Assembly: GCA_947631355.1 (NCBI GenBank)
Contig: CANRKY010000001.1
Coordinates: forward strand, 1,284-65,283
Direction: 5' to 3'
DNA: 64,000 nt
Source of the DNA: an uncultured Marvinbryantia sp.
Lineage (GTDB): Bacteria; Bacillota; Clostridia; Lachnospirales; Lachnospiraceae
Shown here: piece after piece, positions 1 to 18,943 of the stretch
Layout: each line of letters begins with the position of its first letter
Position numbering within the stretch: position 1 is the first letter of the stretch
Made by a program: the position numbers and the translations under genes
The notes under the pieces: generated by a model
What the model was told of the DNA's origin: nothing
The model's input: only the letters and a program-made list of their open reading frames with translations
Database searches by the model: none

Positions 1-531
1 ATCATCACCATAGGTTTCATTTGGTTCATCGATTAAACTCTTCATATCGTTCAAAGTCTCCTGATATTTTTCAAAAGATGCTTCATGACCATCAAATCTC
101 CAATTAATGCAAAAGGCGTATTGATCGTCGTGATTATCTTCATTATCATTATAATATCGTATAACCAGTGTTCCCACCGCTCCGTAAAACTTGTCAGTAT
201 TATATGTTACAATGATTTCATCAGTAACCATATTGTCATAACTCACAGTTTCTGGCTCTCCAAGTATTTGCTCATTATCAGTTCGGTTCATACCCAGGAA
301 TTGTGATAAATCGCTTAATGAATCCTCAGCCTCTTTTCTTTCTTGTATGCTTTCATATGCATGATTATCATTTTCTTTAACTTGATGATCACTAACCGTG
401 GAATGCTCTATATCGTTATCATTTTTACTATTCTTCGAAAATAAAGATAAAACACAGATAATTGCAGTTATTATAAGTATAGTTAAAATTAATGTGAGAG
501 CAAATCCTAAAAATGATTTTTGTCTGCTCAT
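1..531 (-). CDS. Membrane-anchored protein, 3'-truncated by window edge; paralog of 535..1260
   Basis: Missing from the ORF track. Manual translation from ATG 531 stays open to base 1 (MSRQKSFLGFALTLILTILIITAIICVLSLFSK...FLGMNRTDNEQILGEPE...), with one N-terminal TM helix. Confidence 0.85.
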   Translation of the reverse strand, partial: MSRQKSFLGFALTLILTILIITAIICVLSLFSKNSKNDNDIEHSTVSDHQVKENDNHAYESIQERKEAEDSLSDLSQFLGMNRTDNEQILGEPETVSYDNMVTDEIIVTYNTDKFYGAVGTLVIRYYNDNEDNHDDQYAFCINWRFDGHEASFEKYQETLNDMKSLIDEPNETYGDD

Positions 532-534
532 ATA

Positions 535-1260
535 TCACGGCCCTCCTAAAGATGTTTCCACAATCAATGCTATATATTCTTTACATTCCTGTCCGTCTAT
601 AAATAAAGGGTCGTTCATAACATCCCACCCTACTCCATAATCATATAATATGATTGACGCAATATTATCACTTCGCAGCTCTTCGTTCGATACGGGGTTC
701 TCATCATAATAACTGCTTCCCCATTTATAAAATTTTGTATCCGAAGTAACGTCTACTGTTTTATAATTATTCCCGTATCGTTTCTTCAAAGAATACAAGA
801 GGAATTGAAGCAGATCCTCACGTTCATCTTCGGATAAACTCCCATCTCGACATGACCAATGAATATATAATGGCATTTGGAAACTATCGTTTAGGTCAAG
901 ATCAATGCATTGTAACTCAATATAACTGTTAGCAGTGTCAAAAATATCATCAGATCGATATTCAAATATTTCAATTTCCTTTTCCAAATCGCTATGATAA
1001 TACTTATACTGTCCAGATGGTAATCCTAAAACATCTTCTATTTCCGTCCTTTGCATGGATGGAAATCTATATATCAAATTGGCAAAATCTTCATTATAAA
1101 CAGGATTCTCTTCTTGATACTCTTGTATACGATTGTTTTCAAAATATATATGTATCAAATGGCTCATCTGAATCACAATGGCTATTATTATTGCTGTAAC
1201 AAGAACTGTCAATAAAAATCCGAAGAACGATTTTTTTCTTTCCCTGTATTCACCATTCAT
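535..1260 (-). CDS. Membrane-anchored acidic protein (candidate immunity/accessory protein)
   Basis: N-terminal TM (KSFFGFLLTVLVTAIIIAIVI) and MQRTEIEDVLGLP motif; lies directly downstream of the toxin gene. Confidence 0.6.
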   Translation of the reverse strand: MNGEYRERKKSFFGFLLTVLVTAIIIAIVIQMSHLIHIYFENNRIQEYQEENPVYNEDFANLIYRFPSMQRTEIEDVLGLPSGQYKYYHSDLEKEIEIFEYRSDDIFDTANSYIELQCIDLDLNDSFQMPLYIHWSCRDGSLSEDEREDLLQFLLYSLKKRYGNNYKTVDVTSDTKFYKWGSSYYDENPVSNEELRSDNIASIILYDYGVGWDVMNDPLFIDGQECKEYIALIVETSLGGP

Positions 1261-1265
1261 AACAA

Positions 1266-2429
1266 TTAGCCCTCTGGAAGTCCTTTTTTAATAATCATAT
1301 CTTCTAAAGTATCTAAGTATTGCTCAATCGCACCATCATACTTATTTCCAAAGCATTCTTTTACATTCAGCAACTCTGCTCTTACAATATCTATATACCC
1401 ATTTTCAGAAATTCCTTCCTCTACTTCTCTTTTATATGAAAGATTCTCAACAGAATCCGGCAAAAAAGATTTTGTTATGTGATTTGACTTTCCCGCATAA
1501 CTATCTGTCTTCTTATGATCATCTCTTAACATAGCTATTGCTGGTAACAAATCTGCATTTTCATCTTGAACTGATCGTTGAGGGATATGGTGAGAATCGT
1601 AACCCTCAATTCCTTTTACATCTTTATGATACCCACCCAATTGTATAACTCCACTATCCTTTGGTTCTAATTCAAGTGTTTTTCGCAAAGTTTCTACTTC
1701 AAAAAGGCAACGGCATTTTGATGCGGCTTCATTATCACCGTATTTTATCGCCAAACGATACGCGTTTGCAACAGATGTCTTATCAAGACCCAGATGCCTA
1801 TTATTTCCTGCCATAGTAATACAGCATATCCTAGCTCCATTTGCAGTTTTATAAACTACGTTTCCGATATTACTTGTTTTCCGTTTACTATTATCTCCCG
1901 TATATGTTGTGGTGTTGGAACATATCTTGCTATGCGAACGAGAGTTTTTGATCATATCGTCATCCGTTTCCCAGATATTTTCTTCTTTTTGTAGTATAGC
2001 TATGTATTCATTAACTGATGATTCCGCGTTCTTCCATAAAGCAGATATCTTATTATAACATTGTGTCATTGTCTTGAGTTCTAATGATGCCGCTTCACCC
2101 AATGTGTTCCACACATTCAATAATTCTTCTTCTAAAGCTTTCAATTCAGTTATTTCGTTATAGATTTTCTCCAATTTGTTCTTTCTATTTTTTGTGTTTC
2201 CATCCCCTTCTTTCTGTAAAGATTGATATTCTGCATCCAAAATCTCCATTTTATGTCTTAAAATAATTGATTGCTCCTCAATTTCTGATATCTGTGAGTT
2301 CAGCAAAGAAGAACTATTTTTCAATAGCCCTGTAGATATATCTATTTTCTTTTCGAGATCACTCGTAAAGCTTTTCATGTCATTACAATGCTCTGCCAAT
2401 TTTCTCCAATCAGCGCGTATCTGTGGCAT
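1266..2429 (-). CDS. WXG100/LXG-like helical N-terminus plus C-terminal HNH/EndoVII-like nuclease toxin domain
   Basis: Coiled-coil N-terminal ~150 aa. The C-terminal YDSHHIP...PAIAM..DDH..T.S motif is typical of polymorphic-toxin HNH-type domains. Confidence 0.6.
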   Translation of the reverse strand: MPQIRADWRKLAEHCNDMKSFTSDLEKKIDISTGLLKNSSSLLNSQISEIEEQSIILRHKMEILDAEYQSLQKEGDGNTKNRKNKLEKIYNEITELKALEEELLNVWNTLGEAASLELKTMTQCYNKISALWKNAESSVNEYIAILQKEENIWETDDDMIKNSRSHSKICSNTTTYTGDNSKRKTSNIGNVVYKTANGARICCITMAGNNRHLGLDKTSVANAYRLAIKYGDNEAASKCRCLFEVETLRKTLELEPKDSGVIQLGGYHKDVKGIEGYDSHHIPQRSVQDENADLLPAIAMLRDDHKKTDSYAGKSNHITKSFLPDSVENLSYKREVEEGISENGYIDIVRAELLNVKECFGNKYDGAIEQYLDTLEDMIIKKGLPEG

Positions 2430-2444
2430 GATTCATCCCTCGTT

Positions 2445-2720
2445 TTACTCAAGCGCTAAATGTGCTTTATGTAATAAATCTGCATATTCTGTCAAGCCTT
2501 CAATTATAGTCTTCGCCTGGGGTTCAGCACTGTCAATTATTTTGTTTATAGTCTTTACATATTCTTCAATAGATCTAAGCGAATCGTCATTTACAGCTTT
2601 ACGTAAAACACTATTCTTACTTTCAAGATCAGTAAAAACATCCCTTAATTTCTTCATATCGGAAGCAATACTTCTTGCAAGCAAAAGCGCTCCTTTTTCA
2701 TCTGCAACAATTCTTCCCAT
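2445..2720 (-). CDS. WXG100-like small helical protein (91 aa)
   Basis: GGAGG RBS before ATG 2720 (the ORF-track start at 2849 overlaps the neighbour). Amphipathic helical hairpin with C-terminal LTEYADLL. Confidence 0.6.
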   Translation of the reverse strand: MGRIVADEKGALLLARSIASDMKKLRDVFTDLESKNSVLRKAVNDDSLRSIEEYVKTINKIIDSAEPQAKTIIEGLTEYADLLHKAHLALE

Positions 2721-2737
2721 TATGTAATCCTCCCTGC

Positions 2738-3016
2738 TTAACGTCGAAAACGTATTCCTTGCAATGACTCTAAATACTTCTTTGATTTCTCTAACTTGTT
2801 CCTTGCCCCTTCTGCAAAGGGTGTAGCCGATAATATCATTTCTATGCATTCATTCATTGCACTTATCGCTTCTTTTTGAGTTTCTGAGTCCAAGCAGCCC
2901 GCTGCTATTTCTATTTCAGCTTGCATATTCTTACAGTGTGTTTGAAGATCTCTTACAAAGTCATCAAGATAATTCATGTATTCACGCATAAGTTCTGTAT
3001 CTTTATCTGTTGCCAT
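2738..3016 (-). CDS. WXG100-like small helical protein (92 aa)
   Basis: Size, heptad pattern and position between the FtsK ATPase and the toxin; no literal WxG motif. Confidence 0.5.
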   Translation of the reverse strand: MATDKDTELMREYMNYLDDFVRDLQTHCKNMQAEIEIAAGCLDSETQKEAISAMNECIEMILSATPFAEGARNKLEKSKKYLESLQGIRFRR

Positions 3017-3027
3017 AACTGCCTCCT

Positions 3028-6000
3028 TTATTTATCTTTGTATGGAATTAACTGCTCTACTCTCACACCACCGTTATAACAAACCGCAAAATCCCCTATT
3101 TGATCTGCGTATGAGCTTCTTCCCAAATATGAAACTGCATCATCCCCGCTCATTTTTAACGCTATTTTGTGTACACATGTGTCTTCAATCCAACGAAACG
3201 ATCTTAATTCCCGGTATACACTGATTTCTGCAATGCAGCTTACCCCAAGCCTTGATCCAAACTTAAATATAGTTTCTATCATTGGAATGCAATTGAAACA
3301 TTCATCCGTCTCTGTCTCCATAATGGAGTTGCTTTCTTTTATTGCAAAAGGAGAAGAAAAATCGATGCCAAGTGGACTATTATTCACTGCAGTATGTGTC
3401 GCATATTGTTCCATTTCCAAACGCATAACTTCCATTCCAGCAAAAACACATATAGTATTTCCTATATTTTTTCGTTCTTTTACAGCATTGTAAAGTTCTA
3501 ATATCCTTTCACACCATCTCTCCGCTGTTCTTCGTATTACAGCACCGGCTTCTTTACATTTTTCCTCTATTCGGCCACCCATTTTAATATCCAAATCAGA
3601 ATCTTGTGCAACAAAAATATCAATGGCAACATTTTTAATATACTTACAGCTATTGATTACAGCAGCAATAATGTCCCACCTTTTTTCTGCCTCTCCTCCA
3701 ACTATTAAGATATTCTCATTCGCCTTTTTGTGAAGATCAATATAATAACTAGGTTTCAGCGTTACCGTTCGTCCCAGATATAGCCTTACATCTCCTGGCC
3801 GTAGTGGGGCAGACTGATCACAGGCTATTCTATCTGCCTCATTCCATACTTCCTGTTCCGTGCTGTTAATATAGATCATTTGTTTTTTCGAGCATTTCCC
3901 CATATATGCCTTATTAACGACCGGAAAGAGTGCTGCTCTATCTTCAGATGTCGAATATAATACTCTGAATTTCTCGATAGTGATGTCAGAAGCTTCTTCG
4001 TCCTTATATGAGGAATGAAGCATAACTATATCACCTATCTTCAATTTATGAAGCATCTTTTTGACACCTTCCGAATAAAGAGCAGGATCACCACCAAGCG
4101 TTTCACGAATTTCACTTATATTCTGATTCTTCATTGCCATTCGAGAAAGAATCTGGTTTTTAGCTTTCGGAGTCAGCCCGCGTAATCCAACACTGATTGC
4201 TTGATCTGAAAGCAGGCAATTCAGACCCAAAGAGCCATATTCTGCCAGCACATTCTCTAATTTAATCATATACTCTGTATCATCCTGAACAAATTGGCTC
4301 AATTCATGGAATTCATCTATAATCAAAAGAATTCTTGGAAAATTAACGTATCCTTCTTCTCCTTTATGGCGACGGTATTGAGCAAGAGAAACCGCATTAA
4401 ACCTAGTAAATACTTCGGCTCTCCTGTTAAATTCCTCATGGAGGCTGTCTAACAGACTATATGTAAATTCCTTTGATTTACTGAGACCTATCAACTTTAT
4501 ATGAGGCGGAGTTGATTTCCGATATGTTGCAAACTCCACTCGTTTATAATCCACCAGCCATAATTCCAGATCATCAGGAGAATACAACAATATAGCTCCC
4601 ATAATGACAGTATGCAAGAAAGTTGACTTCCCTGATCTGGTTGACCCCGTCACAAAGCAATGAACCCCTTGTTCATCAAACAGCTCAAGATAAACCGACT
4701 TCCCATAATTGTCTATAGCTATTGGTATTCTTATGCCATTTGTTGCATCTTGCAATTTATGCGGATTCGTATTATAGTAAGTAAAAATGCTGTTATCCAA
4801 CATACTCGCAGTTTCATAATACTTGCTGATTGCGTTCATATAATTATCAATCTGTGTCTCATCTGGTGTTATGCACTGCTGCAGCGGATACACTATCCCA
4901 TTTACTCTACATTCCATTGCATCCACATCAATATGCACGATATTTTTATTAATGCCAGCTTTTATTGAAAGGTTATACAGATTTTGAAAACCTTCTTCTG
5001 ATGTAACAAATATAAATGAAAATCCACAGTTGGATGCATTCGTCAATAATTCAAGGTACTCTTTTTCAGTCTTCGAATTTGGTTTGTTCGAAAACGAGAA
5101 ATCCATAATCCAGTTAAAAGGGATACTTGTCTCCGTATGTTCAGCTTTATACCGAAAAAGGTTATATTTACCTGCCAATAATGTAAGGATCTTTTGAATC
5201 TGTGCTCCCAAAAAAATACGTCTTTTTTCGCATTCATCCTCAGTTCCATATACATTCACATTAAGATCAGAGTTTCCTATATCTGAAAGTGCGATCAGGC
5301 GTCCTAGGCTTCCTCCTTTGTGAAGTGTATCAAAAATCGATATTCTATTATTAGTTGCCGGAATAGTCATTAGCATTCTTGCAATAATTTGACGGCCAAT
5401 TCTTTTTCTCAGATCACTATCAACATCAGCAATATCACCATTTTTAGAAGATATTACCAATATGTTAGTTTGATTCAATGGTAACTTCAACGGAAAGCTC
5501 TCATCTTTTACATTACCATCCTGTTCTAGTATCTTAACTGCAATATTCCCAACAAATAGGTCATCCGGCATGTACTTCGGAGGTATATATTGATCCCATC
5601 TCAGATATTTCTGTAACACTAACTCTTGATTTCGCGTTATCTCCTGTCTTAACTGGATTAACTCTTTAGACACGTAAAAACTGCTTAGTTCTTGCTTTTT
5701 TTCTTTCCGTTCGACCTCCTCTCTTTTATTTTTTAGATCGATTTCCTTATTATAGTCATCTTCCTTACGTTCCTTTTCCTGTTCATAGTTTTTAGCTTCT
5801 GTTTTTAAATCGATTTCTTTCTTGCTTTCAATTTCGTCCAAACGCTCATTACAATATTCTTCTGCATTGATTACTTTCTGCATAACAGACTGGGCTAATT
5901 TCCTTTTTGAATCAAAACCATTCAATTTAAAGATCCTCTGCAACCACACAATGAAGCCTTCTGCGCGGATCATCTCGAGTAGATTATTTAATTCTTTTTC

Positions 6001-6318
6001 CGAAATGCCTTCTGGTGCCGGATCATAATCCATTTCTGAAAAATTTTTTAAGAACACCTTTACTGTTTTCTTGCATTCTGATAATTCTTTTTTTCTTCTC
6101 AGATAACAACTGCGATCCTTTTCTGCCTTGTCCTTTATCTCACGAGTTCTATTGTCTGAATCTTCCTTCGCAGATTTACACCATTTTGTATACTCGGCTG
6201 ATATTCGGTCTCGCTCTAATTTGTATTTATTCTCTATTTTTCTAATTTCTTCTTTTAGCCTGTTCCTCTGTACTAGAGCAGATGCAGCTACAGAGGTAAT
6301 ATGTTCTATGTCTTTCAT
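3028..6318 (-). CDS. FtsK/SpoIIIE (EssC/EccC-like) ATPase with N-terminal coiled coil
   Basis: Walker A GSTRSGKS, Walker B LLIIDEFH, WLVDYK and SDQ motifs; degenerate flanking ATPase-like domains; no clear TM segment. Confidence 0.85.
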   Translation of the reverse strand: MKDIEHITSVAASALVQRNRLKEEIRKIENKYKLERDRISAEYTKWCKSAKEDSDNRTREIKDKAEKDRSCYLRRKKELSECKKTVKVFLKNFSEMDYDPAPEGISEKELNNLLEMIRAEGFIVWLQRIFKLNGFDSKRKLAQSVMQKVINAEEYCNERLDEIESKKEIDLKTEAKNYEQEKERKEDDYNKEIDLKNKREEVERKEKKQELSSFYVSKELIQLRQEITRNQELVLQKYLRWDQYIPPKYMPDDLFVGNIAVKILEQDGNVKDESFPLKLPLNQTNILVISSKNGDIADVDSDLRKRIGRQIIARMLMTIPATNNRISIFDTLHKGGSLGRLIALSDIGNSDLNVNVYGTEDECEKRRIFLGAQIQKILTLLAGKYNLFRYKAEHTETSIPFNWIMDFSFSNKPNSKTEKEYLELLTNASNCGFSFIFVTSEEGFQNLYNLSIKAGINKNIVHIDVDAMECRVNGIVYPLQQCITPDETQIDNYMNAISKYYETASMLDNSIFTYYNTNPHKLQDATNGIRIPIAIDNYGKSVYLELFDEQGVHCFVTGSTRSGKSTFLHTVIMGAILLYSPDDLELWLVDYKRVEFATYRKSTPPHIKLIGLSKSKEFTYSLLDSLHEEFNRRAEVFTRFNAVSLAQYRRHKGEEGYVNFPRILLIIDEFHELSQFVQDDTEYMIKLENVLAEYGSLGLNCLLSDQAISVGLRGLTPKAKNQILSRMAMKNQNISEIRETLGGDPALYSEGVKKMLHKLKIGDIVMLHSSYKDEEASDITIEKFRVLYSTSEDRAALFPVVNKAYMGKCSKKQMIYINSTEQEVWNEADRIACDQSAPLRPGDVRLYLGRTVTLKPSYYIDLHKKANENILIVGGEAEKRWDIIAAVINSCKYIKNVAIDIFVAQDSDLDIKMGGRIEEKCKEAGAVIRRTAERWCERILELYNAVKERKNIGNTICVFAGMEVMRLEMEQYATHTAVNNSPLGIDFSSPFAIKESNSIMETETDECFNCIPMIETIFKFGSRLGVSCIAEISVYRELRSFRWIEDTCVHKIALKMSGDDAVSYLGRSSYADQIGDFAVCYNGGVRVEQLIPYKDK

Positions 6319-6551
6319 AAAGTCTCCTGAATATTATGTAACTTTATTGCGGTTTTTTGCAAGGCTTCTTCAAGTTTTTCATGGGTGCTGATAAATCTTT
6401 CCATAGCTACATCGAGTAATTCACTATAATTTAGGAGCGGTTGCATTACCTCTTTTTCATACTCCTTCATTGTTTCATCTTTCCAGCCTTTTTTTAAGTT
6501 CTCCCAACTCAGTATAAGTTCTTCGCTATAATTATTCTTCAGCATATCCAT
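6315..6551 (-). CDS. WXG100-like protein (WxD variant)
   Basis: 78 aa helical protein with LKKGWKDE; 4-bp overlap with the FtsK gene. Confidence 0.6.
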   Translation of the reverse strand: MDMLKNNYSEELILSWENLKKGWKDETMKEYEKEVMQPLLNYSELLDVAMERFISTHEKLEEALQKTAIKLHNIQETL

Positions 6552-6572
6552 ATATTATCTCCGTTCTTTATA

Positions 6573-7550
6573 TCAGAGTCCAAAAATCGTACCAAAAACA
6601 AGCCCTATGATTAAGAGTGCAAAACCAGCTGACAAAATCGCTCCTATAACTACTCCAAGCAAATACATAATACCAGCAACGATATAAGTAATCGTCAAGC
6701 AAACAAATATTGCTATCCATACGCCCGCTATTCCAGACAAAAAGAACAGCGGCCCAAGTAGATTTACATTGTCATTTACAGTCTTTAGATACTCTGATGA
6801 AGCCCAATATAGAAACGTTACACCAATTATTGGCACAATTACCATTACAATCTCTACCCCATCGTATAAGATACTGAAATTGAATGATTCAGCCATACTA
6901 CTCATAGCATTATAAATGACACTTTCCATGTAGAGCGAGTTTGCAGAATAGCATGTTATCCCCCATACCGTTATACATATATAGAATAAATATACTACCA
7001 AATTATTCATTGAAGCAGTTTTATTATCAGCCTTATCTACTAAAACTGTTTGCACGTTTTCAGTGTATTGAATTATATCAATACTATCCGGTATCAATAT
7101 ATTCCATTTGTTTTCTGCCTTTCTTGAATACTCATTAAATTTTTTGTCCAATCCATCTATATTTTTCTCCAAACTCGATTTAATCCTCTTAATATCTTTT
7201 TGAGCCTTAAATATCCCCTTATAATTCCAGATTATAGCAATATTTCTTCGTAATACAGCAAGCCAAAACAGAACTGTAACTACTATAGATGTTATCATTA
7301 GCAGGCTGACTTCCGGTACAACATAATAATCAAACCGGAAATACGGCCTTAACTCCATTGCAGCATAAAGAAAGCAAACACTCCACACGGCTATAGCCAT
7401 AATCTCTAGGATTCGCAAGCCTACTGATTCATCCCCAATACGGGTTGAAACTGCTTTTTCTGTCTTGGATATACTTTCAATTTGCTGCTCCATTATTTCT
7501 TTTGCTTCATCTTGCAGTGACTTGAAATCTATAGATATACTATTTTTCAT
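6573..7550 (-). CDS. Multi-pass membrane protein with cytoplasmic coiled coil
   Basis: About 6 hydrophobic segments in two groups separated by a charged helix. Confidence 0.6.
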   Translation of the reverse strand: MKNSISIDFKSLQDEAKEIMEQQIESISKTEKAVSTRIGDESVGLRILEIMAIAVWSVCFLYAAMELRPYFRFDYYVVPEVSLLMITSIVVTVLFWLAVLRRNIAIIWNYKGIFKAQKDIKRIKSSLEKNIDGLDKKFNEYSRKAENKWNILIPDSIDIIQYTENVQTVLVDKADNKTASMNNLVVYLFYICITVWGITCYSANSLYMESVIYNAMSSMAESFNFSILYDGVEIVMVIVPIIGVTFLYWASSEYLKTVNDNVNLLGPLFFLSGIAGVWIAIFVCLTITYIVAGIMYLLGVVIGAILSAGFALLIIGLVFGTIFGL

Positions 7551-7564
7551 ATGTGCATGCCTCC

Positions 7565-10072: not shown

Positions 10073-10117
10073 AAACTCTACTCCCTTTGTGAATTATTAC
10101 ATATCCTGTTCCCCTTA

Positions 10118-10879
10118 TTATTGGCTATTTGATTCGCAAATGCAGACAGTTATGTTGTCCTGGCTCCCATTATCCTTGGCCGCCTGTACCAGTTTTTCAG
10201 CTTTCTCAAGAAGAGAGCTGTTATCCTTCAAAATATCCTTTATCTGCCTTGATCTAACGCAATCCCATAATCCATCTGTACATAATAGATACATTTCCCC
10301 TTCTTGAATGGAAGGCTCAACCTCACTAATTTCGACTGGTTGACTCTCTTTACTACCCAAACAACGTCTGATAATATTCCTTCCATCGTAAGCGAAACTT
10401 TCTTCATATGACAAAATGCCGTTATCAATCATTTCCTGGACAACAGAATGATCTGTCGTAATTCGTGATAAATACTTTCCATCAAATCTATATACTCTGC
10501 TATCTCCCGCGTGAAAGAACATCATTCTTTCTTTTCCAAAGATAACTCCCGCAATCGTGGTTCTCATTTTACTGTACTTTACAAGAATACTTTGCTGATC
10601 ACATAGCCTTCGATTTATACTATCAAATTTATTAGCTAGTGTCTCTGTTGTAGATAATGAATCAGCTTCACATTTGGCCAGTTCAGAAAGTACAAATCCT
10701 GCAGCATATCCTCCACCATTATATCCACCCACGCCATCACACACCGCTGCAATAAATGGCAGTTTTAGAATCTGTTCTCCCTTCGAGTGATCATATATAA
10801 GATGACCCACCAATGCACGATCATCATTGTGATCATATCTTGTTCCTATATCAACTATTGTTGCTGTATGTATCTCCAT
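10118..10879 (-). CDS. PP2C-family Ser/Thr phosphatase
   Basis: NDDR, VCDGVGG, HAGDSRVY, LCTDGL and DNIT motifs. Confidence 0.93.
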   Translation of the reverse strand: MEIHTATIVDIGTRYDHNDDRALVGHLIYDHSKGEQILKLPFIAAVCDGVGGYNGGGYAAGFVLSELAKCEADSLSTTETLANKFDSINRRLCDQQSILVKYSKMRTTIAGVIFGKERMMFFHAGDSRVYRFDGKYLSRITTDHSVVQEMIDNGILSYEESFAYDGRNIIRRCLGSKESQPVEISEVEPSIQEGEMYLLCTDGLWDCVRSRQIKDILKDNSSLLEKAEKLVQAAKDNGSQDNITVCICESNSQ

Positions 10880-12803
10880 TTTCCATCATCCTAAAATGAA
10901 TTTGTCCATTTTTCCCTAAATAGCAGCGCAAAGAATTATCTTCTATTTCACAGGTACAAAGATAATTTGCCAACGGATTTAGCAATTCACGTTCAAGCAT
11001 ATTGCCAACACCACGTCCGCCGTTAGCTCGTTCCAATACAGCTTTCGTTTTCAACATATCTACGACATCATCTGTAAAGAGCGTTATTCCTTTTCGTTTT
11101 CTTATAGTTTTACATATATCATCAAGTTTTGAAATGCAAATTTCTTCAGCTATATTTTTATCAATAAACTGAAATACAACAATGTTATCCTCTCCCAAAC
11201 GATTTAATAGTTCTGGCCTACCATTCCCAACAAAATAATCCTTCACTCCCTGCGTTAGCTTTTGAGAGACCATACTTTTGAATTCTTCGCTATCTGGACT
11301 TGTTGGGTCTTCAATCATAATTGACTGTACGCGACGTATATTTCCCGTTTCGTCACATTGGGGGCGTCCATATTCATCATATTCAAGCTTTGTTAGACCA
11401 ATATTACTTGTAAAAATAATGATGGTTTCTCCAAAGTATACTGTATTTCCTTGATTATCAGTCATTCTTCCATCTTCTAGGATTTGGAGAAATTTGTCCA
11501 GTATAGTGGGAGAAGCTTTCTCTATCTCATCAAATAACAACACACTGAATGGATGCTTCTTAATCTCATTCGTGAGTTGACCACCTCCTTCATAACCTAC
11601 ATAGCCAGGAGGCGCTCCAAACAGTTTCTGATCACTTTGTTCAAGCCTGTATTCGCTCATATCGAATCGTATACAAGCGCTTTCATCTCCAAATATGGCT
11701 TCTGCTATTGCTTTTGCTGTCTCAGTTTTTCCTACTCCAGTAGGCCCTGCAAAAAAAAGTATGCCCCTCGGCTTATTCGAAGCATTTGAGTGCTGTAAAC
11801 CAGACAACCCCCTTACTGCCCTCGCAGCAACCATCTCTACTTTTCGTCTTGCTTCTTCCTGTCCTTTCACCCTTCTTGCGAGAGTATCGTGAATCCTTTG
11901 CATAATATCGTCTTCAAGCAAATCCCATGGATTGTCAAGTACACCGTACTTATATAGCTGACTTGCTTGATGAATCTGTTCTGGCTCAATATTCATTTTA
12001 TAAGCAAGTTTTAAAATCTGACCAATTTCACGGCACCGAAGTCCCTCAGTTTCTGCAACAAACTTTACACCATACTCAGCCTCTTCTTCGGAAAGTTTTG
12101 AATACGGCATTAACACACCATATAAATTTTCCAGATATAGGCGCCTTGTGCTCCTTTCTGGCATCCCAATAGATATCGTTCGAATATTCGGGTTATTAAT
12201 ATAAAGCCATGCAGGAACATCATTGTATTTATCAACCACCATAATAATCATATTACAAAGGCTGTCCGAAGATTTGGAAAGTGTAGAAGCTGCCATTAAA
12301 TTTAAGAACATCTCATTTGCATCTGACTGTCGATCATTACAAGCATCTAATCTGGAAGCAAAATTAATTACAAAGGCAATCCATTCTGCACCACCATCTT
12401 GTGCTTTGTACTCAACAATACTTTTTCTGATAATCTCGCTCATTGACAAAACAGCACTTTCATTTTCTGTCGGCCGATAATACGTCAATCCCTGCTTCAA
12501 ATTCTCTGTTTTGCTCGTATTATAATCTGCAAGTATTGTTTTTAGAATGCTTGTTTCTGTTTCAGATTCATAGCTATAAAACCCAAGAATAGGATCGCAA
12601 AACAAGGCCATTCCTTTTTCCAGCTTAATCAGTTCACAAAGCGCTGCATCTAGGTCATCAATACATGCAAAACGTAACTTGTTCTCCTCGTTCATAAAAA
12701 CGGGATATTCGTCATAAACATTTCCTTCAAGAATGATACAACTTTTCACACCTAAAAAACTCTGTACTTCTTTTTCCCATTTTGGTATATGTTCTCTTTT
12801 CAT
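10851..12803 (-). CDS. ClpA/B-like AAA+ ATPase (degenerate N-terminal module, intact D2-type module)
   Basis: GPTGVGKT, FDMSEY, GAPPGYVGY, LFDEIEKA and TSNIG motifs. Confidence 0.9.
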   Translation of the reverse strand: MKREHIPKWEKEVQSFLGVKSCIILEGNVYDEYPVFMNEENKLRFACIDDLDAALCELIKLEKGMALFCDPILGFYSYESETETSILKTILADYNTSKTENLKQGLTYYRPTENESAVLSMSEIIRKSIVEYKAQDGGAEWIAFVINFASRLDACNDRQSDANEMFLNLMAASTLSKSSDSLCNMIIMVVDKYNDVPAWLYINNPNIRTISIGMPERSTRRLYLENLYGVLMPYSKLSEEEAEYGVKFVAETEGLRCREIGQILKLAYKMNIEPEQIHQASQLYKYGVLDNPWDLLEDDIMQRIHDTLARRVKGQEEARRKVEMVAARAVRGLSGLQHSNASNKPRGILFFAGPTGVGKTETAKAIAEAIFGDESACIRFDMSEYRLEQSDQKLFGAPPGYVGYEGGGQLTNEIKKHPFSVLLFDEIEKASPTILDKFLQILEDGRMTDNQGNTVYFGETIIIFTSNIGLTKLEYDEYGRPQCDETGNIRRVQSIMIEDPTSPDSEEFKSMVSQKLTQGVKDYFVGNGRPELLNRLGEDNIVVFQFIDKNIAEEICISKLDDICKTIRKRKGITLFTDDVVDMLKTKAVLERANGGRGVGNMLERELLNPLANYLCTCEIEDNSLRCYLGKNGQIHFRMMENGDTYSNNS

Positions 12804-13375
12804 TCCTGTTTCTCCTTGTTACGTATTCCTACAAAAACAATATTGCCATCATGCGAAAATGTCTCCATTTTTCTTCCCTTATTGATGTACTCCTTATAAT
12901 CTTTACATAGCGCTTTGTTTAGATAATGTATTTTTTGATTATCAGAGCCACGTAATACACAGCCTTCAAAATTTCTGTCCTCTATATATGGTCCATCTAT
13001 CAAAACGTCAATAAGTTCCAAAACTCTTAATCCAGCATCTCCGCATACTTTATTCTTTATCTCCTCAAGTGTAAAACCCGTATATACAAGAATATCATTA
13101 AAATAGCACCTAATATGAATTAAGAGTTTTTCCAATTCATCCGCTTGTTCAAAAGGATCTCCTCCGGAAATTGTAATACGGGTCAGATTTTCCCTTTTCG
13201 CTATTTCCATTATAATTTTCGCAATAGATTGAACCGGCACCTCGGGCAAATCTGCATCTTGGAATTCTGGAGATATACAGTTATAACATCTTCGATGGCA
13301 ACCTTGTGTCCAGATACATAGACGATCACCCGGGCCTAATGCATGTACAGGTGCAATCAACTGAGCAATCTTCAT
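12800..13375 (-). CDS. NrdG-like radical SAM (activase-type) protein
   Basis: WTQGCHRRCYNC (CxxxCxxC), ISGGDPF, YTGF, DGPY and GSDNQ motifs; ATGA overlaps with both neighbours. Confidence 0.85.
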   Translation of the reverse strand: MKIAQLIAPVHALGPGDRLCIWTQGCHRRCYNCISPEFQDADLPEVPVQSIAKIIMEIAKRENLTRITISGGDPFEQADELEKLLIHIRCYFNDILVYTGFTLEEIKNKVCGDAGLRVLELIDVLIDGPYIEDRNFEGCVLRGSDNQKIHYLNKALCKDYKEYINKGRKMETFSHDGNIVFVGIRNKEKQE

Positions 13376-14268
13376 AATTGCACCCTCAATCGTATAGCAT
13401 CTGGCCGCAAGCATCCGAGCTTAATAATATCTCCATCGCTAAGAGCCGTCCTGCTTGATACTCTTTTACCATTAACAAGTGTACCATTTAAACTAGATTT
13501 TTTTTTAATACTTTTTTCTGGCACATCCCATACCCCGTCATATATGTACCATGTTCCATCCGTGAACTCAAAATAACACTGATATCCGCTTATATACAAA
13601 TCTGATCGGAAAAACTCATCACATTTTCTAAATCTTTCATATCGGGAATCGCTCTTATCCAAGATATCTGTCGAATATCTTCCAAAAAGAATTGGTGACT
13701 CTGATTCCGAGAAAGAAACACTGAATTCTGCGCTTCTGTCAATCACGGTAAACGTGATATTTCCTTCAATTGGTTTACTCAAATGAATTTGTCCTTCCGT
13801 TTTAGAATCACTGCTATCCCCTAGTATATTATTTAAGATTCTCTCCCATGACAGACTATAATCTTTCTCTTTGGAATTGAATAATATAGTATCTGGTTGA
13901 TTTGATTTAGTCTCTACGTTTTCCGGTATTTCTATTGGCATTTCTGATTCTCTCGTTGTATTATTCACAACTGGCTGCTTGTCAGAATTCGTTTTTACCC
14001 TTGATACATGAGAAATACTTTTATGGCAATACATGCATTGTGATATCGGACTTTGCGCTGCCACAGTATAGTTTTTTTTCCCACATCTTGGACACTCTTG
14101 TACTAATATTTCAAGGTTTTCATTAATATTCCCCCAAAGATCTGGACCAATGTCCGTCTTCACCTCTTCTGCACAAATTCTAGTTATATCTTCTCCGCAT
14201 TCACACTTCTCTACCGTGATGTCGTTATATAACCCGCATTTTGGACATTTTCTTAAAATATAGCTCAT
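13372..14268 (-). CDS. Zinc-ribbon plus FHA domain protein
   Basis: CPKC..CEC and CPRC..CMYC motifs; FHA motifs FGR, ISG.Q and SLNGTLVNG; GAGGTG RBS. Confidence 0.8.
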   Translation of the reverse strand: MSYILRKCPKCGLYNDITVEKCECGEDITRICAEEVKTDIGPDLWGNINENLEILVQECPRCGKKNYTVAAQSPISQCMYCHKSISHVSRVKTNSDKQPVVNNTTRESEMPIEIPENVETKSNQPDTILFNSKEKDYSLSWERILNNILGDSSDSKTEGQIHLSKPIEGNITFTVIDRSAEFSVSFSESESPILFGRYSTDILDKSDSRYERFRKCDEFFRSDLYISGYQCYFEFTDGTWYIYDGVWDVPEKSIKKKSSLNGTLVNGKRVSSRTALSDGDIIKLGCLRPDAIRLRVQL

Positions 14269-14293
14269 AATCTGGCACCTCAAACCGATTGAT

Positions 14294-15880
14294 TCATTGC
14301 ATATATTGATACCGAGTATCAGGTTTTTGTTTATCTCTTCTCATATTTGTGTTGTTCACTCCGGCTGCTATTCTTGTAACTTGATTTGAAGCCGCAGTTT
14401 CCTTAATTCCTATATCCACAAACCACTTTTCTTTAAGCCTTTTAGAGAGGCCCTGTAAGTTTCTACAATGATTTTCCTGTGTCTTGACTGTCTCTGCTTT
14501 ATTATTTCCTGTCATAATTGTCTGCAGTGTAGTACTCCCATCGCGGTGTGTAATCACCTGAAGTTGACAGAATTCATTTATTTTATACAGCTGCATAGCA
14601 TCCTGTTCAGTCCCCGGAACATAGTAAGCTGGGATTTCAGTACCGCTTTCCGTTTTGTATTGTGTCAACTCGCCCCGGAATTGCTTATATAATATATTCT
14701 TGTCAACCATAGAATAACCCATGGCGGTCATTTCATCGTTTAACGCCATGCAGATATATCCGTCTTTTCCTAATGTCTCGTATAATTTTGCACATTTTTT
14801 AGCTCGTTTAACAGTCTTCTTCTCGTTCTCTATCTCTCGTAGCAAATCCTGAGTGTCAGCGAAATCTGACTTGTCACGTACAGATAATCCGAGCCCAGTT
14901 CGTAAATCCGAATAAACTTTATAATAATATTCACCTTCAATTGCATCTAATTTTTGCAACCTTGTTCGATACTCTTCCATGCTCATTCGTAATCTATCCA
15001 GTCCCTGCCTTAAGTCTTTATTTGATATACCCGGAATTGAGAGACTTTCTATCCTCTCGTCTACACCACCCAAAATTCTTGTTAAATCCTTTTCCATGTT
15101 TTGGGGGATAGGTACTATTCCCGCACGCTCATGTTCCCTTTCAATTGCCCTGTGGAACTGCCCTGAGAGAGACATCAACTCTTCCCACAATCCAGAACGC
15201 TCATACTCTTCTGGAGAAACAGATTTAACGTCAGAAACCATCGCAAAAGATGTTGGTCCGTCCGGAATTTGCATATTAATTCGATTATGTACTTCTGTAA
15301 CATCGTCAATTAAATCTTGAAAATCCTCTTGCAATACATATCTAGCAGTTTCTTTAAGACGTTTACGAGTATTCATCATCTGTTCAAGCTGAGCAATTCT
15401 GACTTGACTAATCGAAGTAAATCGCGCAACAGTTTCTATATCTGCTGTTTTCACTTCCTTTAATATACTCTCTGTATCCTTAATAATATTAGTAGCGTCT
15501 ATCAGCATTTCTTGCAGCTGATCAGATTTCGCCAAATCATCCATACTTTTTTTCAGCTTTTCGGTTTCATTTATAAAAGAATCTGTTAACTTAAGAATAC
15601 TTCTTAGATTGCACGCCGTCTTTTCTCTGCTTATCTGTAGTTTTTCCATTCTTGAGTTTTCAATATTATCAACTGCACTATTCACAGCTTTTATTGTATT
15701 ATAAGATAATTTCCCACCTTGAAACAGAATCCATGCCACACCAAAGCAACTTGCCGCAACCGCTCCGCCTGCAAGCGCAACAATTCCCACTGCTACTTCA
15801 GCTGGGCCTCCAGCACTACTACTCATTTCTTCGCCGAGTGTCTTTTTGCTCGGCTCCCTCCTTTCTATCATAAAAAACAC
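14294..15880 (-). CDS. Long coiled-coil protein with hydrophobic N-terminal helix
   Basis: 528-aa ORF in the operon with a Gly/Ala-rich hydrophobic segment near the N-terminus; start uncertain. Confidence 0.6.
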   Translation of the reverse strand: MFFMIERREPSKKTLGEEMSSSAGGPAEVAVGIVALAGGAVAASCFGVAWILFQGGKLSYNTIKAVNSAVDNIENSRMEKLQISREKTACNLRSILKLTDSFINETEKLKKSMDDLAKSDQLQEMLIDATNIIKDTESILKEVKTADIETVARFTSISQVRIAQLEQMMNTRKRLKETARYVLQEDFQDLIDDVTEVHNRINMQIPDGPTSFAMVSDVKSVSPEEYERSGLWEELMSLSGQFHRAIEREHERAGIVPIPQNMEKDLTRILGGVDERIESLSIPGISNKDLRQGLDRLRMSMEEYRTRLQKLDAIEGEYYYKVYSDLRTGLGLSVRDKSDFADTQDLLREIENEKKTVKRAKKCAKLYETLGKDGYICMALNDEMTAMGYSMVDKNILYKQFRGELTQYKTESGTEIPAYYVPGTEQDAMQLYKINEFCQLQVITHRDGSTTLQTIMTGNNKAETVKTQENHCRNLQGLSKRLKEKWFVDIGIKETAASNQVTRIAAGVNNTNMRRDKQKPDTRYQYMQ

Positions 15881-15924
15881 TTAATCCCAAGTTCCTATTA
15901 AAATAGGTGCATATTTTCCTATGG

Positions 15925-17034
15925 CTATTCTTTATCGTCAGGCTGATTTTCTGATATGAATGGCGTCTCTTCTTTCGGAATAAAGCAACATCCAATAATA
16001 ACAGCTATCAGCATCATCTCATAAAATGCTTGTGGTCCGTAAAATGGCAAAGCCAGAAATACATTTGAGAATGGCAAAAATAACGCACAGCATAAACTCA
16101 ACACCCAACGGATTATTATAATAACCAGTGGTCCTATCGCAACAATCCTACCCGATGCTACTGTTATACTTCTATATAAGTCAATCAACACCCATAGCAC
16201 AAAAATGATCAGAATAATATATATTGGAATCATCAACACGATTTTCTTCTTAAAGACATATATGACACTGTAATAATCACCAACAAAGTCGGGAATATAT
16301 CGGATTTCTCCGTTGTACATCATAATTGCCTCATAAACCATACCCCCAATAGATGTTGCGATAATCAGCCCCCAAAAACCTTTCTTTTCAATAACTTTTG
16401 GTTTGTAAAAATAATAATATCCACAGCTTATATAGATGATATAAAGAACTCCATCTGATATCATATTCCATACCATATCCTGTTTTCCAGTTAAGTCAGG
16501 TGACAAATCATTTTGGGCATATAGAAAAGCCCATATAACACAAAAAGCTGTAAATATCAACATGGAATACCATTTTTTCCATGTTGAGCAGGCTTTCGCA
16601 CTCAAGATAAATAATAAAGGACATATAACACTTATCTGAATAAAAATCACCATGGACCGATGAAAAAAAACCGGCTGGTCAAGTTCCAAATAAACAGGTA
16701 TTCCATTAGATAATAATCTCAAAGTCAAAGCTTGTCTCCAAATATTCCGTAAAAGTATTGCCGCAACACACAAAAAGAAGAACATCTTATATCTCGTAAA
16801 ATGGCTCCATCGTATACGTGCAAACGTAGCGAGCAAACTTTTTACCCCACAAATAACACAGATAAAAATAAAAAGCTGTGAAATTGTGAACATCAAGCTT
16901 TCCCCCATATATGGATGGAAACATCCAGTTCTATTAAAGGTTTCGGCAACTCTATTAAAAAACAGCAGACCGGAAATACCAACAAGCGCCTCTGCGATCA
17001 AGATTAAATGCCCTCTTTTAGTAGCCCTATACAT
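15925..17034 (-). CDS. Polytopic membrane protein
   Basis: About 10 hydrophobic segments; AAGGAG RBS before ATG 17034. Confidence 0.7.
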   Translation of the reverse strand: MYRATKRGHLILIAEALVGISGLLFFNRVAETFNRTGCFHPYMGESLMFTISQLFIFICVICGVKSLLATFARIRWSHFTRYKMFFFLCVAAILLRNIWRQALTLRLLSNGIPVYLELDQPVFFHRSMVIFIQISVICPLLFILSAKACSTWKKWYSMLIFTAFCVIWAFLYAQNDLSPDLTGKQDMVWNMISDGVLYIIYISCGYYYFYKPKVIEKKGFWGLIIATSIGGMVYEAIMMYNGEIRYIPDFVGDYYSVIYVFKKKIVLMIPIYIILIIFVLWVLIDLYRSITVASGRIVAIGPLVIIIIRWVLSLCCALFLPFSNVFLALPFYGPQAFYEMMLIAVIIGCCFIPKEETPFISENQPDDKE

Positions 17035-17479
17035 ATGCGCTCCTTCTTTTTCCAAATCAACAAAAAATATTATGCTTCATAGCAATTATACTAAAGAGCG
17101 ATATTACATCTCTTAACTCGAGAATGAAAAACATTGCAATACTGATACCTGAGTTAATACTCATAATCAAAAAGCGTATCTACTACGCATCAAAAGCATT
17201 ATTCACAGTTAGATCAGTCATGTACCTTTGTCAAAAAATTGTCCACATCATCGCAATCATTTCAAAATTAAGCATTCGTAAAGATTATATCGGAAAAAAT
17301 AGTATTTGTCAATTTTTTGTGTAATCAGCCGAATTGTGTCTATTTTTTGTATGTTTGCTGTATTGTCAGAATAATTTGTGTGAATTATCTGTCATATATT
17401 CATTCTTCATGCCACAAACCGATTGTCCTTGGCAGACGGAAATTATACTTACTACGTTATCTCCATTGCACTCGCCCCA

Positions 17480-17902
17480 CTATTGTCTTATATCTCCTGT
17501 ATAAAAAACGATAACAATGATTTTGCAAAAAGGTTCTCTCTGCCCTATATCTTTGCATTGCAGATAGGAAGATATATCCAACGTGGACGGCAAGAAGCTA
17601 AACTTTACAGCATGAAAAGCACTCAACTGGCACATATAAATGATTTCACGGGCAAAGGTTTCCTTATCCTTAATATCTTTACAGTTTGCCACGACAATCA
17701 AATACTCATTGCCGTTCACGCTTGAACAGCTTACTATATCAGGCAAATCACTATGGCTTTTCTGCCTGTCCTTGAATAGCTTTGCTGCATATATGCCGAA
17801 AAAGACTACTACAAATAATAAGGTCATTCCAATAATCTGCTTTTTCCTTACCACTTTTCCCTCCATTGATGAAATAGGTTCCGAAAACAGAACCTTTGTC
17901 AT
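17480..17902 (-). pseudogene. Small membrane-anchored hypothetical protein, possibly degraded
   Basis: One TM segment followed by a short domain; the C-terminal part looks scrambled. Confidence 0.3.
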
Positions 17903-17957
17903 CTTCTATCTTAAACCTATAATAAAAGAAATGCAAGGGGGAAAGGGGTGAGGGAGT

Positions 17958-18158
17958 TTGATAAAATATGATAAGTTATGGGCAACTATGAAGGGAAAAG
18001 GCATTACGAAATATACCCTGCACACAGAATATCATGTCAGCAAGTCTCTCCTTTACCGTTTGCAGCACAATGAAGGCGTCAGCATGAATACCATCAATAT
18101 GCTCTGCAATATCCTTGACTGCAATATTGAAGATATTGCCACCCATTACAAGGATTAA
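17958..18158 (+). CDS. Cro/C1-type (Xre) HTH regulator
   Basis: 66 aa; the pattern MIKYDKLW...GVSMNTINMLCNILDCNIEDI is typical of clostridial Xre proteins. Confidence 0.85.
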   Translation: MIKYDKLWATMKGKGITKYTLHTEYHVSKSLLYRLQHNEGVSMNTINMLCNILDCNIEDIATHYKD

Positions 18159-18383
18159 TATAACTGCAGAAATACCGCCATTACAGATAATACGAAGAAG
18201 GGGAATCTATACTCCATCAGGATTCTTTCACAAAGAAAAATTGAAAGTTGAAAAAATATAGGATTTATCGAGATTTATTAGTCTTATACAAAGTTGCTAA
18301 TAGACCTCGACTTTTTTTTGCTGTGTAGAGATATAATATCTTTATAGTATAGGTATATGCCATCTATACGAGGAGATGATTTC

Positions 18384-18659
18384 ATGGCTATCACTCCAAC
18401 ACAATTTCATATTGATTCGAATATCAAACGTAAAGCAACAGCTCTATTTTCAAACCTTGGTTTGATATGTCTGTCAAGCGCAGTAAATCTTTTTCTGTAT
18501 CAATGTGTCCTTCGCGGCGGTCTGCCTTTTGCAGTGGAAGTTCCGCAATACAGTGTCAAAGCGCTCAGTGCAATGGCCGAAGCAAAAAAAATATCCCGTG
18601 ATCCTGACATCACGGGGTGCAACAACATGGAAGAACTAAAGACGGCACTTGACGACTAA
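18384..18659 (+). CDS. RelB/DinJ-family antitoxin
   Basis: IDSNIKRKATALFSNLGL..SSAVNLFL.Q.V..GGLPF; AGGAG RBS; TAATG coupling to the toxin remnant. Confidence 0.8.
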   Translation: MAITPTQFHIDSNIKRKATALFSNLGLICLSSAVNLFLYQCVLRGGLPFAVEVPQYSVKALSAMAEAKKISRDPDITGCNNMEELKTALDD

Positions 18660-18747: not shown

Positions 18748-18943
18748 AACGTATCTCTCTCGCTTGCCCTTAAAATGAGGAGTGCCCCCGGTGTCTGGTA
18801 CACCGGAGGCAATTATGAAAAAATTTATCTATTAGTCGTAAGGTTGTTGGATTTCTTACTGTCACTACTATAACAGGCAATTGTGAACAGATTATGAACA
18901 ATCCATAAATTTATTGTTATTTTATACAAAAATCACTTTAAAG

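Follow-up and report, generated by a model that had tools for sequence, protein, structure and literature searches.

Type VII secretion is usually described for Actinomycetota and Bacillota, where it is arranged around a membrane-embedded ATPase of four domains. The type VI secretion system (T6SS) has a threonine-phosphorylation pathway composed of the kinase PpkA, the PP2C phosphatase PppA and Fha1/Fha, together with the AAA+ protein ClpV. Features of both are found in a 17-kb operon at the left end of the stretch of DNA analysed here (the window, 64,000 nucleotides (nt) long, C1:1284-65283), which belongs to an uncultured Marvinbryantia sp. whose 2.47 Mb genome, in 212 contigs, is 92% complete. 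The operon encodes a T7SS-type ATPase (T7SS, type VII secretion system) with small WXG100-like proteins, a toxin, and a kinase, a phosphatase, an FHA protein, a ClpB-like AAA+ protein (the unfoldase) and a radical-SAM enzyme.

In all the subtypes described by Garrett, Higginson & Palmer 2024 (microLife 5:uqae013), which include T7SSc-j, a membrane-bound ATPase with four NTPase domains occurs together with a WXG100 protein, TsxA, and nearly all, T7SSd being the exception, also have the YukD-like TsxB. The components further include a kinase (TsxD), a PPM phosphatase (TsxF), an FHA protein (TsxJ) and a vWA protein. The sole AAA+ protein is the cytoplasmic TsfV of T7SSf, which has a TadZ-like receiver domain; T7SSa-j have no radical-SAM enzyme and no ClpB-type ATPase. 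The substrates are LXG-like toxins accompanied by one or two WXG100-related 'Lap' genes and by immunity genes (Garrett et al. 2024). The targeting complexes that LXG toxins form with Lap1 and Lap2 in T7SSb are the subject of Klein et al. 2022/2024, and a case of T6SS phosphorylation in A. tumefaciens is referred to here as cited in Garrett et al. 2024. A different type of machine was noted by Zhang, de Souza, Anantharaman, Iyer & Aravind 2012 (Biol Direct 7:18, Table 1 footnote 6) under the name 'mobile versions of T7SS'. It consists of solo WXG proteins and a YueA-like ATPase with three HerA/FtsK domains, only the middle one being active (Zhang et al. 2012).

The gene set of the operon maps onto none of the published subtypes T7SSa-j. 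An earlier account of this DNA, made from its letters alone (the sequence-only reading), had proposed an undescribed T7SS-like variant or else an intracellular, phosphorylation-gated conflict system. The relation to T7SS is borne out, and comparison with the published subtype gene sets gave no full mapping onto a described subtype. However, the operon is a fusion of two cassettes, each conserved independently, and the ATPase type itself was already known from the 2012 footnote: the motor belongs to the mobile T7SS class. Module B (1-6551) is a T7SS-derived 'mobile' unit, probably for export or handling, that contains the ATPase, the WXG100-like hairpins, the toxin and the candidate immunity proteins. 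Module A (6573-17055) is an independently conserved cassette, probably for control or processing. No description of the pairing of modules A and B was found in the literature searched, nor any paper on a radical-SAM or ClpB-like component in T7SS or on a subtype beyond j. We read the operon, with a little better than even confidence, as a T7SS-derived toxin-delivery system gated by threonine phosphorylation, in which the unfoldase and the radical-SAM enzyme act on a protein target.

The soluble ATPase of module B

The genes of module B are, from upstream to downstream (lengths in amino acids, aa; TM, transmembrane):

Positions 6315 to 6551, minus strand: sm78, WxD protein of a ~70-aa family, 78 aa, directly upstream of the ATPase gene
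Positions 3028 to 6318, minus strand: soluble EssC/EccC-like ATPase (the motor), 1096 aa, FtsK_SpoIIIE match at 2e-18
Positions 2738 to 3016, minus strand: smA, 92-aa WXG100-superfamily hairpin with L/M in place of W and a basic-aromatic tail conserved at the C-terminus
Positions 2445 to 2720, minus strand: smB, 91-aa helical hairpin starting MGRIV, second Lap-like partner
Positions 1266 to 2429, minus strand: putative polymorphic toxin, 387 aa, with a 160-aa helical hairpin targeting domain, a small, conserved alpha/beta pre-toxin domain (191-251) and a C-terminal domain
Positions 535 to 1260, minus strand: candidate immunity protein 1, with an N-terminal TM anchor and a ~200-aa domain predicted outside the membrane
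Positions 1 to 531, minus strand: candidate immunity protein 2, 240 aa when complete, ending left of the window, same architecture as protein 1

The motor is a T7SS-type protein, EccC/EssC-like by both sequence and fold. Its top NCBIfam matches are EccCa, EssC and EccCb. Among PDB sequences the best match is EccC of T. curvata at 2e-27, followed by B. subtilis YukB and by EccC5, with the DNA translocase FtsK reaching just 6e-4. The AlphaFold2 model, built on 22 homologues and having a predicted local distance difference test score (pLDDT) of 82, starts with a stalk (residues 2-237) in the form of an antiparallel coiled coil; three alpha/beta P-loop-type domains come after it and correspond to FtsK-type domains at 250-500, 520-800 and 815-1096. 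The degenerate C-terminal ATPase domain was missed by profile-profile self-comparison and was seen by way of the structure model. Upon comparison with Foldseek, the model superimposes over ~990 columns on the three-ATPase cytoplasmic part of EccC (E 5e-24); EssC structures come next, and FtsK motors follow at ~1e-10. The Walker A (GSTRSGKS, 558-565) and Walker B (IIDE, 665-669) motifs are present in the middle domain only and are invariant across the family.

Two TM helices near residues 210-280 occur in most of the full-length planctomycete relatives of the motor, which are ~1300 aa long; the clostridial relatives lack them. A tree of the active domain was calculated from 174 sequences and rooted on DNA translocases; the T7SSc-j ATPases were not included by accession. 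The motors of the full operons form one clade (support 0.996), situated inside a TM-less clostridial clade of 27 sequences (support 1.0). The latter is grouped with the planctomycete forms, the two making up a clade of 108 sequences (support 0.91), and the named EccC/EssC proteins form a separate clade (support 0.99). No close relative of the ATPase was found on plasmids (tblastn, PLSDB), the best match having 38% query coverage and 24% identity.

The small WXG100-like proteins

As single sequences the three small proteins have no match in Pfam or NCBIfam, sm78 matching no Pfam model at all, and family profiles were required to place them. The three WXG100-like proteins of the sequence-only reading hold at the level of the superfamily, because these profiles reach WXG100 structures, and the small proteins did not turn out to be something other than WXG100 hairpins.

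The sm78 family has the motif W-x6-W-x-D-x5-FE. Its profile matches EsxA of S. aureus (2vs0) at E 7e-4 with the WxD aligned on WxG, and 5 of 30 family members match Pfam WXG100. The family comprises ~2350 representative clusters (E <= 1e-3). In 49 of the 86 loci searched, planctomycete loci included, a homologue of sm78 is encoded next to the ATPase, nearly always directly upstream. The protein is a truncated member of the WXG100 superfamily and a fixed partner of this ATPase clade.

The smA profile matches EsxB of B. anthracis (4j42) over its full length at 6e-10 and also finds HP0062, SAG1039 and EsxA; the position of the gene resembles that of Lap/EsxB. The smB profile reaches EsxA at 6e-5, amid designed coiled coils at similar E-values. 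Planctomycete and other clostridial loci encode ~90-aa 'W[RK]D' proteins, to which both smA and smB are related.

Many loci from Planctomycetota and others (in the set L008-L086) encode an EssC-like ATPase of ~1300 aa with two TM segments, a WxD protein of ~70 aa directly upstream of it, and W[RK]D proteins of ~90 aa nearby.

The toxin and the candidate immunity proteins

Judged by its sequence, the toxin is polymorphic and has a tripartite layout. In the model, two helices (2-74 and 79-159, pLDDT ~90) form the N-terminal part, and residues 257-343 have a pLDDT below 35. The N-terminus is conserved among relatives, and the C-termini are recombined, as found by pairwise BLAST and alignment. The related toxin of L001 ends in an LHH nuclease domain, and a SUKH immunity gene is next downstream.

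The C-terminal domain contains the motifs GYDSHHIP...DDHKKT (SHH, DDH). It is rare: a word-index homologue search found 2 relatives. In the two closest homologues of the toxin, the toxin gene is directly followed by the end of the contig or by a change of strand. The toxin has no NCBIfam match and no Pfam match at E up to 5, and specifically no match to Pfam LXG, DUF3130 or DUF3958; the profile of its N-terminal domain found no LXG structure. Foldseek gave only generic long hairpins for the toxin and nothing for its C-terminal domain. The 'HNH' label that had been attached to the toxin is left unconfirmed by this lack of Pfam and Foldseek matches and by the pLDDT below 35.

Each of the two proteins encoded downstream has a basic stretch followed by a single N-terminal TM anchor, with the bulk predicted outside. 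They are weakly similar to each other (24% identity over 96 aa, E 0.005) and have no family match.

Module A

The genes of module A are, from upstream to downstream:

Positions 15925 to 17055, minus strand: TMa, polytopic membrane protein, 376 aa, ~6-8 hydrophobic segments, at the flank of module A
Positions 14294 to 15880, minus strand: CC, coiled-coil protein, 528 aa, one N-terminal hydrophobic helix and a long coiled coil
Positions 13372 to 14283, minus strand: Zn-ribbon-FHA protein, 303 aa, two Zn-ribbons with an FHA domain at the C-terminus (Pfam FHA 8e-11)
Positions 12800 to 13414, minus strand: NrdG-like radical-SAM enzyme of activase type (Fer4_12 7e-28)
Positions 10851 to 12803, minus strand: single-ring AAA+ protein, N-domain (1-300), ClpB/ClpC D2-type nucleotide-binding domain and D2-small domain (AAA_2 1e-46, ClpB_D2-small)
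Positions 10118 to 10879, minus strand: PP2C Ser/Thr phosphatase of Stp1/IreP type (NCBIfam Stp1_PP2C 3e-53, below its cut-off; Pfam PP2C)
Positions 7565 to 10072, minus strand: Hanks-type Ser/Thr kinase, 835 aa, cytoplasmic (Pkinase 6e-25)
Positions 6573 to 7550, minus strand: TMb, membrane protein, 325 aa, N-terminal cytoplasmic helix and ~6 TM segments

The identities given to these enzymes by the sequence-only reading (kinase, PP2C, Zn-ribbon-FHA, ClpB-like AAA+, NrdG-like radical-SAM), and that of the FtsK/EssC-like ATPase in module B, were all recovered as domain matches in Pfam, NCBIfam or the PDB.

The kinase has intact catalytic motifs (HLDIKPEN at 295, DFG at 314) and no TM segment; its C-terminal region is helical and ~400 aa long. 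The FHA domain has the motifs GR, S-x-x-Q and NG. In the AAA+ protein, residues 299-625 match the D2 and D2-small domains of ClpB/ClpC, the D2 structures of ClpB in the PDB being found at ~1e-52 (residues 299-471), and Walker A (353), a GYVG pore loop (400) and Walker B (421) are present. The N-terminal 300 aa gave no match in Pfam, NCBIfam or PDB sequence searches.

The top NCBIfam match of the radical-SAM enzyme is NrdG (TIGR02491), with 93 bits against a cut-off of 126 and a full-length alignment (model positions 13-153 of 154). The CxxxCxxC motif (CHRRCYNC) is at residues 39-46 and GGDP at 84. A PDB sequence search gave no match to this enzyme. A separate radical-SAM paralogue, possibly a housekeeping NrdG, is present on contig C128.

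TMa, TMb and CC have no Pfam or NCBIfam match as single sequences. Orthologues of TMa, 331-356 aa long, occupy the same position in L088-L090. The true start of CC is likely the ATG at 15826 (MSSS...), which matches the orthologue starts MSSE...; a hidden Markov model (HMM) of CC weakly matches the 'MSGPK...' coiled-coil proteins of stand-alone copies of module A. The best non-self matches of the TMb HMM are the TM proteins that flank stand-alone module A (2e-5 to 0.06), and TMb probably belongs to module A.

At the N-terminus of the kinase there are five ERPxT[IHL]xE repeats (residues 38-128, window 9689-9961). A role for these as a conserved FHA docking array was considered and rejected, the repeats being peculiar to the kinase of the window and absent from the kinases of L001, L002 and L088-L090.

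Distribution of the two modules

The joined operon, with the same gene order, is present in five further loci from metagenomes or metagenome-assembled genomes (L001, L002 (L002/L003) and L088-L090). All the close relatives examined, with protein identities down to 38-50%, preserve the A-then-B order and the spacing. Two genes found in the orthologous operons are missing from the window: a DedA/VTT gene, situated at the junction of TMb and sm78 (6551-6573 in the window) in all five orthologous operons read there, and a CrtO-like gene, which L088 and L090 have upstream of TMa and for which L089 gives a weaker match. A distant relative, L005, has the reversed order, the ATPase cassette being followed by FHA, radical-SAM, AAA+, PP2C and kinase genes, which implies that the modules were joined at least twice. 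L091 probably also has the L005-like order; its contig ends before that point.

The N-domain of the AAA+ protein has more than 250 matching clusters (90% identity), of which the best 120 are ~50% identical to it. The context was sampled for three of these clusters and was an A+B operon in each (3/3).

Each module also occurs by itself. Of 398 other genomes of the class, 9 contain the AAA+ N-domain, and eight stand-alone module A loci, from 8 of these genomes, have neither an FtsK nor a WXG gene. Six of the 8 stand-alone loci fetched (L103-L107, L109) keep the whole block from CC to the kinase with its order unchanged, and the stand-alone blocks are usually flanked by TMb-like membrane proteins. 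L110 has the module A genes in a different order, and L111 only the radical-SAM and AAA+ genes, at the end of the fetched stretch. The same genome has a diverged paralogue of module A on contig C89 (L087, 352-9201) at the native GC content of 58%. Its genes are, in order, ThiF-like, unknown, kinase, radical-SAM, AAA+, unknown (394 aa), Zn-ribbon-FHA and transglutaminase-like; the copy has no PP2C gene, and the ThiF/E1-like and transglutaminase-like genes are at its flanks. The ATPase cassette is alone in L006 and is accompanied by kinase-vWA-PP2C in L004, L007 and L092. Modules A and B thus appear from these gene orders to be separate evolutionary units that were joined more than once.

The arrangement in L092 (1456-9744) is TerD-TerD-kinase-vWA-PP2C-WxD protein-soluble ATPase, the TerD genes being of the tellurite-resistance type. 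In L089 (1-3599) the full orthologous operon lies beside BrxC/PglY-like, DUF4007 and PAPS-reductase genes and a transposase.

The gene array and its borders

Fifteen co-directional, tightly packed open reading frames (ORFs) on the minus strand span positions 17055 down to 1, in agreement with the earlier count of at least 15 such genes, near-adjacent or overlapping, in an AT-rich island; all long ORFs of the island are on this strand. The intergenic distances in the array range from -43 to +45 nt. Overlaps of 4 nt of the ATGA type join the radical-SAM gene to the AAA+ gene and sm78 to the ATPase gene. The FHA/radical-SAM overlap is also 4 nt and of this type provided that the radical-SAM gene starts at the internal ATG at 13375, its likely start. 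The genes of the array appear to be translationally coupled.

Positions 1 to ~18000 have a GC content of 34-39% (36% in the island), against ~55% in the remaining window and roughly 55% in the genome. The 17-kb operon is a horizontally acquired island. A promoter-like site of the sigma-70 kind precedes it:

Positions 17284 to 17312, minus strand: TTGACA-17-TATAAT, 12/12 consensus, 5' of the first gene, the sole 12/12 match within 1-18500

The total of promoter-like sites is no higher than in a shuffled control, and the weight of this site comes from its position, not from site counts.

The sequence left of the window, to which the earlier account had pointed, was retrieved up to the contig end and contains no more genes of the system. 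The last operon gene runs on for ~186 nt, reaching its complete length of 240 aa. A truncated N-terminal fragment of an IS110-type transposase follows (C1:621-1010, ~270-660 nt left of the window), and then the contig ends. The downstream border of the island is an assembly break.

On the other side, where the AT-rich island meets DNA of higher GC content, an ORF (19070-20089) is flanked by a direct repeat of 105 nt (18932-19036 and 20439-20543, 92% identical), which duplicates the 3' end of S1/rpsA. The ORF has no Pfam match. A second repeat of 35 nt is found at 19025-19059 and 20628-20662. The interval from the island to the flanked ORF contains a RelB-family antitoxin-like ORF (18357-18659, plus strand).

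Proposed mechanism and alternative explanations

In the proposed mechanism a soluble, hexamer-type motor with one working ATPase site would drive export. The N-terminal hairpin of the toxin would bundle with smA and smB, as in the LXG-Lap complexes, and form the export signal, which would be read by the degenerate last ATPase domain; the two membrane-anchored proteins would protect the producer. Phosphothreonine marks would be set by the kinase, removed by the PP2C and read by the Zn-ribbon-FHA protein. This phospho-switch would license the unfoldase and the coupled radical-SAM enzyme for action on a protein substrate. TMa, TMb and the membrane-anchored CC would tie module A to the membrane, where they might sense a stimulus and might also provide the dock or conduit that the anchor-less motor is missing. 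That module B exports proteins is inferred; phosphorylation gating of export would parallel PpkA/PppA/Fha1 of T6SS and the kinase, PPM phosphatase and FHA protein of T7SSc-j. An exported toxin fits the locus, because the downstream proteins are membrane-anchored with their bulk predicted outside; if these are immunity proteins, the toxin acts outside the cytoplasm. Also in favour, the genome has no Pfam-level WXG100 protein and no second EssC-like gene; as other T7SS parts are missing from it, the island has to be self-sufficient.

Several observations weigh against this mechanism. There is no hydrophobic segment in the motor or in any clostridial relative examined. None of EssA, EssB, EsaA and EsaB is seen in the window, as the sequence-only reading had noted, and no YukD (PF08817) was found anywhere in the 92%-complete genome, in a search that gave matches in control genomes. 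With no TM helix in the motor and no YukD-, EssB- or EsaA-like part, any route for proteins across the membrane is hypothetical. The placing of smB among WXG100 proteins is weak, and position alone makes the two downstream proteins candidates for immunity. The stand-alone occurrence of module A and the copy on C89 imply that the primary function of this module is not T7SS regulation. Finally, a neighbourhood with a RelB-type gene is typical of defence islands, and the operon of L089 adjoins BREX/Dnd-like genes in a setting of the same type.

Some of these observations would be accommodated by an intracellular abortive-infection defence, the main rival explanation, which we consider unlikely. 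Module A would sense infection or envelope damage via the membrane proteins and the kinase, the unfoldase/radical-SAM pair and the FtsK-like ATPase would release or activate the toxin inside the infected cell, and the WXG-like hairpins would be intracellular chaperones or inhibitors. A motor without a membrane anchor suits such a system, as does the presence of module A without secretion genes in 8 other genomes and on C89, and the RelB gene near the island and the BrxC/PglY-like, DUF4007 and PAPS-reductase genes near the L089 operon point the same way. PADLOC 2.0 gave weak matches to FtsK-type (SspH, mad8) and kinase (mad6, PD-T4-6) models; however, its kinase, AAA+ and FtsK-domain matches are generic, and no anti-phage system model was satisfied. 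The ATPase, moreover, is specifically EccC/EssC-like and has WXG100 partners. The cargo has the tripartite layout of a polymorphic toxin, with SUKH immunity in L001, a hallmark of exported interbacterial toxins (Zhang et al. 2011/2012), and the candidate immunity proteins are predicted to face outward.

That two unrelated, non-interacting systems merely lie side by side in a mobile island is improbable because the fusion is conserved and repeated: each module does exist alone (B in L006, A in L103-L110), the accessory sets vary among the B cassettes, and the TMb-sm78 junction is a 21-nt gap with no overlap, but order and spacing are the same in all the close relatives, the pair recurs in opposite order in L005, the single strong promoter-like site is upstream of the whole array, and the A-linked motors form one clade (0.996) and share a stalk-tip motif that is missing from B cassettes without a radical-SAM gene.

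This motif might bear on the target of the radical-SAM enzyme in the delivery system proposed above. Activases of the NrdG/PflA type place a radical on the RVxG[FYW] glycine loop of their partner enzymes. A scan for glycyl-radical motifs took in all operon proteins, and the sole conserved match was a similar loop at the tip of the motor stalk (KLNGF, residues 131-135, window ~5917-5931, pLDDT below 50). The orthologue versions are RLGGY and KLDGY; the consensus is [KR]-[LI]-x-G-[YF], or more widely WxKRxF[KR][LI]xG[YF]xS[RK], and resembles the glycine loop of glycyl-radical enzymes. The motif is present in all six full-length motors linked to a radical-SAM gene. A similar one occurs at other positions in the N-terminal part of 2 of 12 motors with no such gene nearby, and a G-H variant is found in L092, where no radical-SAM gene is visible. 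The correlation carries little weight because the six positives are a single clade. A conjecture that we hold to be very improbable is that module A is a general 'licensing' machine for various effectors, which here targets the motor; the NrdG-like enzyme would equip the motor, or else the MSGPK/MSS coiled-coil protein, with a radical or with a modification derived from one, to be reset by the unfoldase. If true, toxin export in a strict anaerobe would be under the control of a radical-based switch that might be sensitive to oxygen.

Significance

The locus belongs to a large, almost unstudied sister branch of the T7SSs that have a membrane-embedded four-domain ATPase. The members of this branch in gut clostridia have no membrane anchor and still carry polymorphic toxins, and how such a motor moves proteins is a mechanistic question. 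In this locus the motor is linked to module A, whose set of kinase, phosphatase, FHA protein, unfoldase and radical-SAM enzyme is conserved widely but uncharacterised; toxin release or killing, as an assayable output, could make its biochemistry testable. The key question is the role of the orphan NrdG-like enzyme alongside a ClpB-type ring. The pairing of the modules may show how toxin delivery gets switched on. The operon occurs commonly in gut-type metagenomes and may thereby influence how gut anaerobes compete.

Comparison with known systems

The operon shares with T7SSc-j an EssC-related ATPase, a WXG100-type partner and separate kinase, phosphatase and FHA genes. The statement of the sequence-only reading that non-canonical T7SSs often carry kinases, phosphatases and FHA proteins agrees with Garrett et al. 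2024. As in T7SSa-j, a core protein of the WXG100 family goes with the ATPase, here sm78, which is truncated and has WxD for WxG. Unlike the ATPases of T7SSa-j, that of the window has no TM helix and has three domains instead of four, and in contrast to the membrane-bound kinases published for T7SSc-j its kinase is cytoplasmic. The AAA+ protein is of the ClpB-D2 type, whereas TsfV of T7SSf has a TadZ-like receiver. The kinase-vWA-PP2C set of the relatives L004, L007 and L092 is the accessory set of T7SSc.

The resemblance to LXG-Lap complexes of T7SSb lies in two ~90-aa hairpin genes directly upstream of a toxin with a long alpha-helical N-domain; unlike the LXG toxins, the toxin of the window has no LXG match in Pfam or among structures. 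As in T6SS, what would be a toxin-delivery machine is encoded together with a kinase, a PP2C, an FHA protein and an AAA+ protein of the Clp/Hsp100 family, whose AAA+ domain has ClpV (TIGR03345) as its second-best match in NCBIfam. The operon differs from T6SS in having no T6SS structural genes and in having a radical-SAM enzyme without a T6SS counterpart. The AAA+ protein has one D2-type ring and an unrelated N-domain, whereas ClpV has its own N-domain and two rings; compared with the ClpB/Hsp100 disaggregases, it matches D2 and D2-small only and has no D1 and middle domain. The radical-SAM enzyme is similar to the NrdG/PflA activases in its small size, its Fer4_12 match and its CxxxCxxC cluster motif, but the operon has no gene for a glycyl-radical enzyme of the NrdD/PFL type, and the enzyme is coupled to an FHA protein and an unfoldase.

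The mobile T7SSs of Zhang et al. 2012 are alike in having three FtsK-type domains with the middle one intact and a dedicated small WXG-like partner, and the motor of the window groups with the planctomycete members of this class, apart from the named EccC/EssC proteins. The clostridial motors differ from the planctomycete ones in lacking the two TM helices at ~210-280, in place of which there is a coiled-coil stalk. The cassette of the window is further set apart from these mobile T7SSs in that it carries polymorphic toxins and is fused to a module of kinase, unfoldase and radical-SAM enzyme.

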